Below, piece after piece: positions 15,711 through 63,135 of a DNA stretch of 64,000 nt. The stretch comes from Stegostoma tigrinum (lineage: Eukaryota). The notes beneath the pieces are model-generated. The model did not search any database and was not told the DNA's origin. It saw only the letters and a program-made list of their open reading frames with translations. Position numbers and translations under genes: made by a program. Location of the stretch: assembly GCF_030684315.1 (NCBI RefSeq), contig NC_081379.1, positions 39,323,947 to 39,387,946 of the forward strand, written 5' to 3'. The stretch's first letter is position 1; each line of letters begins with the position of its first letter.

Positions 15711-15784
15711 CCCTCACAGTCTAACTCTGTTGGTCTCTTGCGTTCTCGTTAATTTACCATCAGTTAAGACAGAGATACCATTAC

Positions 15785-15945
15785 CTGTCCTCCAGCACTG
15801 AATCCATGGGCTCCACTCCCTCAGTGTCAACAGCATGCAGCTGGTTGGCAAACTGTATGGCATTTGCTAGCCTTTCTATACCCTCCTGGTTCCGAAAATC
15901 AACAAGTGCCAATCGTTCCAGGTGGTCAATCATCTCCATGGTAAC
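15785..15945 (-). CDS. GATC: GATC exon 3
   Basis: ctctag|[53 protein letters not shown](R)|gtaatg. Core of glutamyl-tRNA(Gln) amidotransferase subunit C; 161 nt. Confidence 0.96.
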
Positions 15946-17375: not shown

Positions 17376-18950
17376 GATCTGGAATGTGATCCAGGTTCAG
17401 TTGGGGAGGGAGAGAATCTGGAATGTGATCCAGGATCAGTTGGGGGGGGAATCTGGAATGTCATCCAGGATCAGTTGGGGGGGGTATCTGGAATGTGATC
17501 CAGATTCAGTTGGGGGGGAATCTGGAATGTCATCCAGGATCAGTTGGGGGGGGGTATCTGGAATGTGATCCAGGCTCAGTTGGGGGGGGAGAGAATCTGG
17601 AATGTGATTCAGGTTCAGTTGGGGGGGGGAGAATCTGGAATGTGATCCAGGTTCAGTTGGGGGGGGAGAGAATCTGGAATGTGATCCAGAATCAGTTGGG
17701 GGGGGGAGAGAATCTGGAATGTGATCCAGGATCAGTTGGGGGGGAATCTGGAATGTGATCCAGGATCAGTTGGGGGGGGGGTATCTGGAATGTGATCCAG
17801 AATCAGTTAGGGGGGAGAATCTGGAATGTGATCCAGGATCAGTTGGGGGGGGTATCTGGAATGTGATCCAGGTTCAGTTGGGGGAGAGAATCTGGAATGT
17901 GATCCAGGATCAGTTGGGGGGGGAATCTGGAATGTGATCCAGGATCAGTTGGGGGGGGGGGGAATCTGGAATGTGATCCAGGATCAGTTGGGGGGAGAAT
18001 CTGGAATGTGATCCAGGATCAGTTGGGGGGGGGTATCTGGAATGTGATCCAGGATCAGATGGGGGGGGGAGAATCTGGAATGTGATCCAGGATCAGTTGG
18101 GGCGGGGAGAGAATCTGGAATGTGATCCAGGATCAGTTGGGGGGGTATCTGGAATGTGATCCAGGTTCAGTTGGGGGGGGAGAGAATCTGGAATGTGATT
18201 CAGGTTCAGTTGGGGGGGAGAGAATCTGGAATGTGATCCAGGATCAGTTGGGGGGGAGAATCTGGAATGTGATCCAGGATCAGTTGTGGGGGGGGACAGA
18301 ATCTGGAATGTGGTCCAGGATCAGTTGGGGGGGGGGTATCTGGAATGTGATCCAGGTTCAGTTGGGGGGGAGAATCTGGAATGTGATCCAGGATCAGTTG
18401 GGGGGGAATCTGGAATGTGATCCAGGATCAGTTGGGGGGGGGTATCTGGAATGTGATCCAGGATCAGTTGGGGGGGGGGAGAATCTGGAATGTGATCCAG
18501 GATCAGTTGGGGCGGGGAGAGAATCTGGAATGTGATCCAGGATCAGTTGGGGGGGTATCTGGAATGTGATCCAGGTTCAGTTGGGGGGGGAGAGAATCTG
18601 GAATGTGATTCAGGTTCAGTTGGGGGGAGAGAATCTGGAATGTGATCCAGGATCAGTTGGGGGGGAGAATCTGGAATGTGATCCAGGATCAGTTGGGGGG
18701 GGGACAGAATCTGGAATGTGGTCCAGGATCAGTTGGGGGGGGGGGTATCTGGAATGTGATCCAGGTTCAGTTGGGGGGGAGAATCTGGAATGTGATCCAG
18801 GATCAGTTGGGGGGGAATCTGGAATGTGATCCAGGATCAGTTGGGGGGGGGAAATCTGGAATGTGATCCAGGATCAGTTGGGGGGGGGGATCTGGAATGT
18901 GATCCAGGATCAGTTGGGGGGGGGGATCTGGAATGTGATCCAGGATGTGA
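17376..18950. repeat. Minisatellite in GATC intron 1, ~36-40 bp unit, roughly 40 copies
   Basis: Unit gaatctggaatgtgatccaggatcagtt followed by a variable G run. Confidence 0.97.
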
Positions 18951-24551: not shown

Positions 24552-24945
24552 TGAGGGTAGGGGGGGGCACAGTGAGGTTCACCGGAGGGAGGGGGGGAAG
24601 GGTAGAGGGGGCGCACAGTGAGGTTCACCGGAGGGAGGGGGGGGAAGGGTAGAGGGGGGGCACAGTGAGGTTCACCGGAGGGGGGGAAGGGTAGGGGGGG
24701 CACAGTGAGGTTCACCGGAGGGAGGGGGGAAGGGTAGGGGGGGTGCACAGTGAGGTGCACCAGAGGGGGGGGGGGAAGGGTAGAGGGGGGGGCACAGTGA
24801 GGTTCACTGGAGGGGGGGGGAAGGGTAGAGGGGGGGCACAGTGAGGTGCACCGGAGGGGGGTGGGGAGGGTAGGGGGGGGTGCACAGTGAGGTGCACCAG
24901 AGGGAGGGGGGGGAAGGGTAGAGGGGGGGCACAGTGAGGTGCACC
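24552..24945. repeat. G-rich minisatellite, ~36-42 bp unit, ~10 copies
   Basis: Unit gcacagtgaggttcaccggag(G-run)aagggtagaggggg. Confidence 0.95.
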
Positions 24946-25047: not shown

Positions 25048-25859
25048 GGGAGCTCAGTGTGATTTAAGAGGGGGTAGAGAGGGAGCACAGTGTGATTTAA
25101 GAGGGGGTAGAGAGGGAGCACAGTGTGATTTAAGAGGGGGTAGAGAGGGAGCACAGTGTGATTTAAGAGGGGGTAGAGAGGGAGCACAGTGAGATTTAAG
25201 AGGGGGTAGAGAGGGAGCACAGTGAGATTTAAGAGGGGGTTGAGAGGGAGCACAGTGTGATTTAAGAGGGGGTAGAGAGGGAGCACAGTGAGATTTAAGA
25301 GGGGGTAGAGAGGGAGCACAGTGAGATTTAAGAGGGGGTAGAGAGGGAGCACAGCGTGATTTAAGAGGGGATAGAGAGGGAGCTCAGTGTGATTTAAGAG
25401 GGGGTAGAGAGGGAGAACAGTGAGATTTAAGAGGGGGTAGAGAGGGAGCACAGTGTGATTTAAGAGGGGATAGAGAGGGAGCTCAGTGTGATTTAAGAGG
25501 GGGTAGAGAGGGAGCACAGTGAGATTTAAGAGGGGGTAGAGAGGGAGCACAGTGAGATTTAAGAGGGGGTAGAGAGGGAGCACAGTGAGATTTAAGAGGG
25601 GGTAGAGAGGGACCACAGTGAGATTTAAGAGGGGGTAGAGAGGGAGCACAGCGTGATTTAAGAGTGGATAGAGAGAGAGCACAGTGTGATTTAAGATGGA
25701 GTAGAGAGGGAGCACAGCATGATTTAAGAAGGGATAGAGAGGGAGCTCAGTGTGATTTAAGAGGGGGTAGAGAGGGAGCACAGTGTGATTTAAGAGGGGG
25801 TAGAGAGGGAGCACAGCGTGATTTAAGAGGGGGTAGAGAGGGAGCACAGTGAGATTTAA
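25048..25859. repeat. Minisatellite, 33-bp unit, ~24 copies
   Basis: Unit gggagcacagtg(t/a)gatttaagagggggtagaga. Gives the 11-aa periodic spurious ORF LPLYPLLNHTV. Confidence 0.97.
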
Positions 25860-33750: not shown

Positions 33751-34658
33751 CTTGGTTCTAATTTCTTTAACAGGGCTGACATGTTAGATGGAGTAAAAAC
33801 AAAATACACAAGAATGTAACGACAAGAAGAAAAATAAACTGCTAGTTCTACAAGTGAGAGACACCCACTGGGTTTAAATCAGAGAGGGCAGGATGCAGGC
33901 TGCTGAATATCATCACATCAGGACAATTAGTGATCTGTGACAGGCAAAATTAAGTAGAATCTTTGAAGATGGAATCCAGAAAGAAACTGTCCCATTCCAG
34001 CATTCACTTCGATCAGTGTGACAGGAACACATGGACCTCAGATGCATGTTCTCATATTAAATTTAAACCATATATTTTTGATCACATTTAAGATGCAAGA
34101 TTTAAAACAAAAATATGTAAACGGCCGGCACAATTTTTAAAATCCTGTTCTGAAGATGTCCAGGTAAAGTGACATAATGCACTTGTTATACTGTGCACTT
34201 TAGTTCTGTAGCAGAATAAGTATCAGTACATAAACCCATGTATGAAGCTGCATTCGTTAATGATCTTCATCCTTAAACATATGAAGTTGCTTGATACCAG
34301 GAGTGTCCAAAGCTTTAGGTCCAAACTTAGGTCATGGCGCACACACGGTTCCTCGCTGTCCAATATAAAGGTTAAATGAATATTCCGGTTAATTGATGTT
34401 GACATTTTCATTTAGCGTTTATTGCCAAATGCACCTTTTCTAAATCTCCAAGATCATAAAATTTAAATAGTATGGAATATGCAATACTAAACTGAAACCA
34501 AGTTGATTGGACTTTGTGGGTTCAATCGCCAGAAGTTGTGGGCCATCATATGGACACTCTAGCTTTACATGGACATTCTACACTGAACGACCTTCCAAGT
34601 ATTCAGGTTTATAGCAAAAACATTGGCTGTCAAACATGAAACGGAAACAAAAACGCAC

Positions 34659-34822
34659 CAGAGACAATGACCCTGAAATCTGATCTGCGGGCAGCTGGTC
34701 CTGGTCTTCCTCTAGATCCACCGCCGACTCCGCCAACTCCTCTGCCTCTCTGGAATTCCACCCGTAAACGATAGACTCCATAATCATAACCATTTCTTCC
34801 ATAGACTGCGTCTTGTGCATCT
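34659..34822 (-). pseudogene. SRSF9: Orphan SRSF9-type exon 2 (end of RRM1, Gly linker, start of RRM2) with intact splice sites
   Basis: ttggcag|(R)[54 protein letters not shown](G)|gtgcgt. 164 nt, phases 2/1. GRNGYDYG and RRSDFRV point to SRSF9 rather than SRSF1. No exon 1 or 3 found on this strand. Identity is confident; pseudogene status is not. Confidence 0.75.
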
Positions 34823-35623: not shown

Positions 35624-37246
35624 CAATCGGTTCTGCTACAACGTGATTGCTGCATTCCTGCGCAACATTGCATTACAGAAAATCGTGCTATAGCAATAAT
35701 GGAGCCTATGGGAAAAGTGGGGTTTGGCAGACCACCAAAAATAAACCAAAATCACTCAAAAGACTAACACAAAGGATAGTACAGCTTGAATAAGTGTTTT
35801 AATCATACTTAATAAATGAAATAAAAGTAAATTTAACACATTACCTTGACAACACATTAAGTTGACTTGACAGGGGAGGAGGTTTTGAGGTTGCTCTGTT
35901 GTTAATGCAGGGACTGAGGGTCATCATCGTCACCACTTTCAGGTGCAGTTGTGGTTGCAGGTTTAGGGTGAAAAATAGTTAATCCAGAAGTGGACGACTG
36001 TGGTTCATTGCTTTCCAACTGTTTCTTGGGGGTTGGCTTAGAAAAGACATTCAGTTTTTGTTGGTTTGCCCTTTCTCTCTGTTCATGAAGAAGCTTTTCA
36101 TAGGGTGCCAAATAAGACCTTATTCCACGAACTGCAACCCTGCTGCGTTCTGCATTATAATCGGTATCCTCTAAGAGTCGCAACTGTTTCTGAATTTCCC
36201 TCAGGATTGAAGACAAAACAGAAGTGGAAAGCTCTTGTGGTGCTGCATCCTGAACTACTTCAACTTCATCTCCAGCTTCCACTTCCCGCTCAGCGACAAG
36301 TTGTTGTAGATCAGCTGTAGAGAGATCTTCACAGTGGCCTTCTTCGTCAATTAATTTTACTATGGCAGGAAATGCCATTGCATGCTCCGCGTCTGCATTG
36401 GCAGCTTTGCCACATAACTTTATGTTATGAAAAGCATAGCGGTTCTTAAAACCAGCAAACCAGCCACTGCTAGCACTAAATGCAGGCACATCTGCAGGAT
36501 TTTCAGCTTTTTTTGTTAAATCTTCATAAATTGATAAGGCTTTCTCTTTTATGCTGAGAAAAGTGGTCCCAGATTGCTTTTTCATTTGATCTTCTATCCA
36601 TACACTTAGAAGGCGCTCCATCTCCTCAAGCTCCTTTGTCCGTGACCTCATAGATTTGCTAGCGCTCAGACTTGTTCCAGCAATATAACTTGCTTTGATT
36701 TTTTCGGCATTGTCTCTAATGGTGCGTAAGGTGGACTCCTTTATTCCTGTTACACGAACTATATCGCATGTTCTCTCATTACGCTCAAAACGCTTTATAA
36801 CATCTAGCTTCTCTTCCAGTGTTATAGCCTTTCTCTTACGTTCACCACCTGCAATTTTATCACCAGGACGCTTCCTGCTAACATTCTTGTCACTTTGTCC
36901 TCGCATTTTTGTGGGTAACACAGCAGAATTTGCAAAAATAAAACAAATATCACGGAGTACCGTACCCCTCACAGTAAGTGCTTCGCGCCAAAATCTGCGA
37001 AATGATCATGTGATGCTGGCGGGGAGACTCTTTTCAGCACTAACACTGCACATGCTCAGGACAAAGCTCGCAAAACAATCATGTCATGTTAACGTGACGG
37101 GAGATGTCGACGTGTATTCTGTGCACCCGATCGAATCGCTTCGTAACCAACACACATGTGCATTTTAGAAATAGCGCTCCCGTATTCTTTAGTCACATTA
37201 TAGCCAATTCGCATTGCTAGAACACGCATTGTAACAGAACCGACTG
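35624..37246 (-). mobile_element. Tigger/pogo DNA transposon, internally deleted
   Basis: TIRs caatcggttctgctacaacg (35624) and cattgtaacagaaccgactg|ta (37246) enclose a transposase-derived ORF. Confidence 0.9.
35902..36906 (-). CDS. Tigger-derived ORF, 334 aa: CENP-B-type HTH plus Tc5 HTH, DDE catalytic domain missing
   Basis: ATG at 36906 (aaaATG). RKRKAITLEEKLDVIKRFE...STLRTI, EMERLLSVWIEDQ...IKEKA and FSASSGWFAGFKNR are present. The ORF jumps from IDEEG to HCEDLSTADLQQL without the FNxDETG/DDE region. Confidence 0.7.
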   Translation of the reverse strand: MRGQSDKNVSRKRPGDKIAGGERKRKAITLEEKLDVIKRFERNERTCDIVRVTGIKESTLRTIRDNAEKIKASYIAGTSLSASKSMRSRTKELEEMERLLSVWIEDQMKKQSGTTFLSIKEKALSIYEDLTKKAENPADVPAFSASSGWFAGFKNRYAFHNIKLCGKAANADAEHAMAFPAIVKLIDEEGHCEDLSTADLQQLVAEREVEAGDEVEVVQDAAPQELSTSVLSSILREIQKQLRLLEDTDYNAERSRVAVRGIRSYLAPYEKLLHEQRERANQQKLNVFSKPTPKKQLESNEPQSSTSGLTIFHPKPATTTAPESGDDDDPQSLH

Positions 37247-37667: not shown

Positions 37668-37820
<153 letters not shown>

Positions 37821-40098: not shown

Positions 40099-40284
<186 letters not shown>

Positions 40285-40290
40285 TCACAG

Positions 40291-40332
40291 CCCACGTGAC
40301 ACCTACCGCCAAAGGCGGGCGGGCTCCGCCCC
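40291..40332 (-). promoter_or_regulatory. TRIAP1 proximal promoter/5' leader motifs: E-box (GTCACGTGG) and GC boxes
   Basis: cacgtgac at 40293-40300; ggcgggcggg and ccgcccc at 40314-40332. Confidence 0.5.
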
Positions 40333-40615
40333 GCCATCATTAATACTGGCAAATGCAGTGTCGCACCTGGGAGGCGCCATCATTGATATTGGTGAACCCT
40401 GACATACTCCCGCAAGGTGTCATCATTGATACTGGCAAACTCTGCCCTCAAACCGCGAAGCGCCATCGTTCACACCGGCAAACAATCCCCATTCCACACA
40501 CAAGGGACGCTGTCATTGATATTGGCATCTAGCACCCACACCCCGGGGTGCCATTGTTGATATTGGCAAATCGCCTCACCGACACCCGGAAGACGCCATC
40601 ATTGAGACTGGCACT
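40333..40615. repeat. Seven-copy conserved 21-bp motif (GCCATCATTGATACTGGCAAA consensus) with divergent spacers
   Basis: Copies start at 40333, 40376, 40419, 40462, 40509, 40550 and 40595. Confidence 0.85.
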
Positions 40616-40914: not shown

Positions 40915-40987
40915 CGCCCGAACAGGGACTTGAACCCTGGACCCTCAGATTAAAAGTCTGATGCTCTACCGACTGAGCTATCCGGGC
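40915..40987 (-). tRNA. tRNA-Lys, anticodon TTT (tRNA-Lys3 type)
   Basis: GCCCGGATAGCTCAGTCGGTAGAGCATCAGACTTTTAATCTGAGGGTCCAGGGTTCAAGTCCCTGTTCGGGCG. 73 nt, full cloverleaf, canonical vertebrate sequence. Confidence 0.98.
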
Positions 40988-62523: not shown

Positions 62524-62614
62524 CCCCTTGGTGCTCCTCGGACGCGGCCGCTGCAGACAACTGCCCGACACTGCTCAGGCTCCGGCGAAACATCCGACCC
62601 CAGACCGCCGCCAT
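62524..62614 (-). CDS. COX6A1: COX6A1 exon 1 (mitochondrial presequence)
   Basis: aagATGGCG start; MAAVWGRMFRRSLSSVGQLSAAAASEEHQG+G|gtgagc. 108 aa in total. The 6A1 assignment rests on synteny with TRIAP1/GATC. Confidence 0.92.
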
Positions 62615-62655
62615 CTTCAGACTGCAATGCGCATGCGCGGCACTGGCCGGAAACA
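62607..62655 (-). promoter_or_regulatory. YY1 site over the start codon, NRF1 site and ETS-like core at the COX6A1 5' end
   Basis: AAGATGGCGGC spanning the ATG, TGCGCATGCGC at 62628-62638, and ccggaa at 62647-62652. Confidence 0.75.
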
Positions 62656-62859: not shown

Positions 62860-63135
62860 GGGGCGGGGTGTGGAGGTGGGGGTAGACCTTATGGGCAGGG
62901 TCACACCGTTGGGCGCATGGTCAGACACTATGGGCGGGGTCAGACGGCAGGGTGAGGTACGGCAGGGGGCGGAGTCAGACTGTAGGGGCGGGGTCTTTCT
63001 TTGGGGCGTGTTCACACGTTAGGGGGCGTGGTCAGGCTGCATAGGGTGGAGTTCGCAGTTGGAGGGCGTCAGACCGTGGAGGCAGGATCAGACGTTGTTG
63101 GCGGGGGTTAGTCGGCAGGGGGCGGGGTCAGACTG
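62860..63135. promoter_or_regulatory. GC-box (Sp/KLF) array in the COX6A1 promoter
   Basis: Repeated GGGGCGGGGTCAGAC-like units at ~19-20 bp spacing. Confidence 0.65.

Follow-up and report, generated by a model that had tools for sequence, protein, structure and literature searches.

A tandem array of candidate YY1-THAP1-type composite sites upstream of TRIAP1 in the shark Stegostoma tigrinum

Stegostoma tigrinum carries seven related 21-mers, all in the same direction, upstream of TRIAP1, a gene of mitochondrial lipid transfer. We assign a probability of about 0.65 to the reading that these are seven tandem composite sites of the YY1-THAP1 type (for THAP1 or a close THAP paralog), which originated by an old tandem duplication and would together activate TRIAP1. 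The array is real, and it is a variant of a known promoter element. This element and homotypic clustering are both already known. What is new relative to the literature found is the repeated amplification, in a shark, of the YY1-THAP1-type unit to form periodic arrays.

The window, that is, the whole stretch of DNA that was analyzed, has a length of 64,000 nucleotides (64 kb). The features are listed in Table 1. The array is located 70-352 bp 5' of the TRIAP1 ATG in CpG-rich DNA (o/e 0.71). Its units follow each other with periods of 43, 43, 43, 47, 41 and 45 bp, leaving spacers of 22, 22, 22, 26, 20 and 24 nt. The seven 21-mers, their consensus and their periods had been described in a sequence-only reading of this DNA, and all were confirmed upon a recount of starts and spacers. 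Pairwise comparison of the 21-mers gives a mean identity of 0.76 (range 0.57-0.90). With the matrix derived from these copies, all seven score 25-32, and the next-best site in the 64 kb window scores 10.8. Each unit combines a YY1-like half with a TnnnGGCA half. TnnnGGCA is exact in four of the seven copies and TnnnGG in five. The strict YY1 core CCATnTT is found in none of the copies and the relaxed form CCATn(A/T)T in three. The variable letter of the YY1 half is A in five copies and G in two, while it is T in most copies genome-wide; because of this replacement, weaker binding of YY1 is predicted for each TRIAP1 copy. The full composite pattern (see below) is passed by unit 1 only. An ETS-type word (CCGGAAG) at 40586 directly precedes unit 7.

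Table 1. Array units, neighboring features and further loci carrying the unit. Positions refer to the window unless a contig is given.
Feature	Start of 21-mer	Position	Strand	Remarks
Unit 1	40333	40332..40353	+	YY1-like half CCATnAT and TnnnGGCA half; top match to genome-wide element
Unit 2	40376	40375..40396	+	GGCA altered; YY1-like half retained
Unit 3	40419	40418..40439	+	YY1-like half altered; TnnnGGCA retained
Unit 4	40462	40461..40482	+	core diverged furthest among units
Unit 5	40509	40508..40529	+	YY1-like half altered; TnnnGGCA retained
Unit 6	40550	40549..40570	+	TnnnGGCA retained
Unit 7	40595	40594..40615	+	YY1-like half retained; T of TnnnGGCA altered
TRIAP1 exon 1		40117..40279 (ATG 40263)	-	Pfam UPF0203, E 3e-20; same-species contig
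TRIAP1 exon 2, coding part		37668..37760	-	joined to exon 1 by same-species contig
tRNA-Lys(TTT)		40915-40987	-	300 bp upstream of array; direction as TRIAP1
COX6A1 start word		62610..62627	+	YY1-type half alone, overlapping ATG
EXOSC2 start				7 copies; identified by database match
PIGC start				4 copies; identified by database match
NELFE start				3 copies; identified by database match
KPTN start		C51, L114:4402-5141		9 copies within 720 bp, five at 40-41 bp period; identified by database match
Unnamed locus		C19		5 copies
PIGV				single copy
Mitochondrial-type alanyl-tRNA synthetase start				single copy

The same-species contig that joins exon 1 to exon 2 (from 37760) ends short of the array. 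The contigs of two other organisms from public runs cover exon 1 only and do not reach it either. The label "promoter" for the array thus refers to its position; contigs cannot map a transcription start. The stretch between the array and the gene start (40293..40331) has an E-box at 40293 as well as GC boxes at 40317 and 40326, which we take to be ordinary housekeeping-promoter words. No p53-like double half-sites with up to three mismatches were found between 37500 and 41200, and a search for TRIAP1 relatives in metagenome contigs found none.

A word overlapping the COX6A1 start had been considered a related copy. The word exists, at 62610, but it consists of a YY1-type half only, and its score with the composite matrix is -5.4. 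It is presumably a plain YY1-type word beside an NRF1-type palindrome. Several degenerate repeats containing GC boxes occur upstream of COX6A1 (62860-63130, minus strand). GATC (15739-15921 and about 19260, minus strand) shares the strand of TRIAP1, from which it is 21 kb downstream, and has its own CpG-rich start. Thus, the shark TRIAP1 does not have the head-to-head arrangement with GATC that we assume for the human genes. A lone exon with splice signals at about 34650-34822 (minus strand) presumably belongs to an SRSF9/SRSF1-like gene; short-motif searches of the window found none of its remaining exons. An open frame of 334 aa (35902-37005, minus strand), located 650 bp behind the TRIAP1 stop, is Tigger/pogo-like, having CENP-B_N and HTH_Tnp_Tc5 domains without a DDE match and a CpG o/e of about 0.6. 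Either a domesticated gene or an element with an internal deletion would fit. Ordinary minisatellites are found at 17377-18946, 24554-24945 and 25048-25859, with units of 36-37, 47 and 33 bp, respectively.

The genome was searched with a composite pattern, consisting of the YY1-like half and TnnnGGCA at the array spacing, which was built from the array and the presumed human logo. It has 61 genome matches, compared to 0 for the reversed control, 7 when the gap is one base longer and 17 when it is one base shorter. Contig C55 (1.8-10.2 Mb) contributes 22 G-rich matches, and four identical ones are unplaced, so that 35 are left upon their removal. C2H2 ORFs adjoin both of the two checked matches from this group, which are probably promoters of paralogous zinc-finger genes. 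Thirty matches were fetched, one being the TRIAP1 array. In the other 29, the positions left free in the pattern converge on the array letters (T in 25, purine in 25 and A/T in 23). The T form, which is the standard YY1 core CCATnTT, is present in 26 of them, the spacing and middle letters being identical. The copy at PIGV equals the array consensus except for a T at the seventh letter. A matrix built from the 29 matches ranks the seven array copies top in the window.

The setting is CpG-rich (o/e 0.55) for 22 of 29 composite matches vs 0 of 14 single matches of the strict array word, a contrast that is inflated, with a lenient control, since the composite pattern itself begins with CG; under a stricter cut-off (o/e 0.6, GC 0.5), 9 of 29 composite matches qualify. 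The likeness among the flanks of the matches stems from a separate repeat that excludes the motif. The strict array word has 17 matches genome-wide, namely three in the array and 14 singles without a second copy, none of them CpG-rich, and the strict pair pattern with the A variant matches at the array only. A unique cluster with a single target, as suggested by the strict word, was dropped once the composite pattern gave 61 matches. Relaxing the two-unit pattern gave no enrichment (9 matches vs 13 in the control), and the result serves as a list rather than a test. None of the ten matches to PRELI-family partner genes is close to any of the 61 composite sites. Pfam analysis of 138 and 144 frames around the matches named only the alanyl-tRNA synthetase start, PIGV and retroelements. 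ZNF143 and NFI were set aside as readers of the unit, on their consensus only.

Additional copies are found near 7 of the 29 non-array matches (Table 1). These sister clusters have the unit in common with the TRIAP1 array, but not the spacers, and in several genome matches the composite unit overlaps the ATG. In the KPTN cluster, the spacers are still similar to each other, and we read this cluster as a younger version of the architecture of the TRIAP1 array. PIGV and the alanyl-tRNA synthetase were identified by database match. Further carrier loci, presumably CIZ1, TMEM199, an RBM4/14-like gene and a PFKL-like gene, were named from N-termini only. The first intron of the PFKL-like gene (C9, L027:1501-1700) has a pair of A-variant units, inverted and separated by 200 bp, which are the nearest relatives of the TRIAP1 unit.

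The carrier genes were compared with human THAP1 ChIP data (PMC11811203, supplement 2; 4,845 rows), by a gene-name search and with a background from two of the 55 parts of the table. A peak was considered strong when both replicates reached at least 8.5. This holds for PIGV (9.8/10.1), KPTN (9.6/9.8), NELFE (9.7/9.8) and EXOSC2 (8.9/9.3). These match the validated targets PSMB5 (10.1/10.6), ECH1 (9.1/9.3) and SHLD1 (8.9/9.1) in strength (PMC11811203, accessible part). Strong peaks are thus seen for 4 of 11 carrier-gene orthologs vs 7 of 179 hand-counted rows from the two slices (Fisher p 0.002). CIZ1 has a middling peak, POLDIP2/TMEM199 and PFKL have weak ones, and the gene-name search found no row for PIGC, AARS2, RBM4/14 or MSANTD2. 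Between human COX6A1 and SRSF9, there is a weak peak (5.9/6.6), which by its position is presumably that of the TRIAP1/GATC promoter.

TxxxGGCA, which THAP1 recognizes (PMC2879526; 10.1101/2024.06.11.598406), corresponds to the right half of the unit, and the YY1 site (10.1101/2025.11.09.687492) resembles its left half. According to the accessible parts of the respective publications, human THAP1 ChIP motifs in K562 cells are gapped (UA4/UA5; PMC3431495), the first THAP1 motif discovered was YY1 plus an extension (PMC3950668), and YY1 and THAP1 co-segregate (PMC5389469). The array resembles this YY1-THAP1 composite in having a YY1-like half beside TnnnGGCA with a fixed spacing at CpG-rich gene starts; also, several shark carriers have orthologs with strong human THAP1 peaks. 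The letter-level human logo and its exact spacing are presumed, and the equality with the array spacing depends on them. Differences are the seven tandem copies at TRIAP1, a YY1 half devoid of the T of CCATnTT, a THAP half that is mostly TnnTGGCA, and the weak binding of THAP1 to the human TRIAP1 region. Because the strict YY1 core is absent from all seven copies, the array is filed as a variant rather than as a plain member of the YY1-THAP1 composite.

Together, THAP1, HCFC1 and YY1 activate SHLD1, PSMB5 and ECH1 (10.1101/2020.07.19.210773; PMC11811203 = 10.1101/2024.06.11.598406; 10.1101/2021.08.03.454996; accessible parts). These targets supply the likely mode of action, in which THAP1 binding aids YY1 and HCFC1 and a housekeeping gene is activated. 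They differ from the array in that the human promoters, as described there, have one to three THABS, and a search of the shark PSMB5 and SHLD1 regions found no composite. Promoters that carry dense homotypic clusters of one long motif are also known, namely CHD4 with ZNF410 sites and MLL with ZFP64 sites (10.1101/2020.08.31.274324, accessible part). Those clusters are genome-unique and conserved across vertebrates. In contrast, the shark unit clusters at five or more promoters and probably involves two factors. Neither the TRIAP1 array nor any tandem YY1-THAP1 array was found described in a literature search, the coverage of which left out most subscription papers.

A THAP1 ortholog is present in the genome (E 2e-26; C1, L064:9224-9295), as one of 10 THAP-domain loci. 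When base-contacting residues are taken from the human structure (PMC2879526, accessible part), three are substituted in the shark protein (Q3L, Y50N and S52N). In the human mutational scan, each of these leaves an activity of 0.35-0.47, compared to 1.73 for K24R and 0.12 for C54Y. The converse test gave 0 of 3 shark counterparts with the composite: it is absent from the start of THAP1 itself, from 30 kb including PSMB5 exon 1, and from CpG-rich DNA within the 119 kb upstream of the C-terminal exon of SHLD1, the promoter of which was not pinned down.

The spacers of the array are related to each other. It had been claimed that they share only a C-rich bias. However, their aligned identity is 0.52 vs 0.45 for shuffles, none of 500 shuffles being as high, and the first spacer is G-rich. 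The likeness is largely that of a purine-rich flank of 5-6 nt preceding each unit, and P is 0.05 once 8 nt are trimmed. Since the spacers are related beyond shuffles, the array likely originated long ago, when a stretch of roughly 43 bp was duplicated in tandem; we infer this from the residual likeness, and selection on the units is likewise our interpretation. Conservation along the repeat is 0.73 for the units vs 0.43 (ungapped) or 0.52 (gapped) for the spacers. Spacers as well conserved as the motifs upon alignment, by which the sequence-only reading would have recognized a decayed minisatellite, are thus not seen. An ordinary minisatellite was rejected, given this uneven conservation and the lack of a TRF call on the region. 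In a neutral-decay simulation (uniform decay, best 21 columns picked; n=3000), the contrast between units and spacers was reached with P 0.047 for the gapped spacer identity and in 0 of 3000 runs for the ungapped one. All length changes in the array are in the spacers. The suggested phasing of sites on one face of the helix is not significant over the seven sites (Rayleigh p 0.21-0.79 for periods 10.2-10.6). An interspersed repeat or transposon end was rejected as well, the whole stretch having a single genome match, which is itself. The array had also been called CRISPR-like but devoid of cas genes, and indeed it is no CRISPR array: the repeats are only 57-90% alike, the spacers are related, the Rfam comparison returned nothing but one tRNA, and intron-bearing vertebrate genes surround it.

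Three other explanations were weighed. One working composite may have been caught in a 43-bp tandem duplication, so that most copies are a decaying minisatellite with little function. The spacer likeness beyond shuffles, the single unit that passes the full pattern and the borderline P of 0.047 under the generous null would fit. We nevertheless regard this as improbable, because the length changes are confined to spacers, the ungapped null never reached the contrast, TRF does not call the region, and unrelated promoters repeat the layout of kept units with differing spacers. The array had also been suggested to be a boundary element, which would protect TRIAP1 from the tRNA-Lys gene upstream of it; its location, with a tRNA gene on one side and a Pol II start on the other, would fit. 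Nothing was found in support of such a Pol III/Pol II role. The unit clusters at the starts of protein-coding genes (KPTN, EXOSC2, PIGC, NELFE) and overlaps the ATG in several matches, which is promoter-like, and we give this explanation hardly any credit.

The array may also be functional but have another reader, either a THAP homodimer on a pseudo-palindrome, another THAP paralog or one long C2H2 zinc-finger protein. With the A variant, the left half of the unit reads TnnnGGC on the other strand, and THAP1 GGCA sites are often direct or inverted pairs (PMC13631171, accessible part). Strict YY1 cores are missing throughout the array, the contact residues of the shark THAP1 differ, and the genome has 10 THAP-domain loci. 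Moreover, TRIAP1 and the PFK-like intron pair, in which no copy has the T, are both at weak human THAP1 peaks. On the other hand, the T form is the standard YY1 core in 26 of 29 matches, with identical spacing and middle letters, and four orthologs have strong human THAP1 peaks. Such a reader is thus possible, yet unlikely. A homotypic binding-site cluster appears to be the best reading of the array, because the units outlast the spacers and the unit recurs genome-wide at a fixed spacing. To that extent the sequence-only reading stands. Its unidentified factor probably does not, as the unit resembles the YY1-THAP1 composite, the factors of which are known.

For the array as YY1-THAP1-type composites, the identity of the binders is proposed from the THAP1 literature and from human ChIP at orthologous genes, and activation via HCFC1 is modeled on human THAP1-YY1 targets. 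The old tandem duplication of a stretch of about 43 bp would have multiplied one composite site. THAP1 would bind to the GGCA halves, as at human targets (10.1101/2020.07.19.210773; 10.1101/2021.08.03.454996; PMC13631171; accessible parts). Bound THAP1 would then assist YY1 in binding to the weakened neighboring halves and recruit HCFC1, and several imperfect units could sum to steady transcription of TRIAP1.

It is tempting to speculate that cartilaginous fishes repeatedly amplify a YY1-THAP1 site at housekeeping promoters with a period of about 40 bp (TRIAP1, KPTN, EXOSC2, PIGC), thereby offsetting the changed base-reading residues of their THAP1, and that a one-letter change at TRIAP1 has made the YY1 half another THAP half-site, resulting in a natural THAP-dimer array. 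We consider this possible but unlikely. If true, a natural series would be available on how site number, spacing and dimerization affect gene activation by THAP1, a dystonia factor. In human, the promoters bound by THAP1 number in the thousands, yet few of them are changed by it, and the determinants of a functional site are an open question (PMC11811203, accessible part). Natural arrays in which the YY1-THAP spacing is fixed over many copies, together with a THAP1 having altered contacts, are testable substrates for this question. The array also suggests that TRIAP1 may have entered the THAP1-YY1 regulon in sharks.
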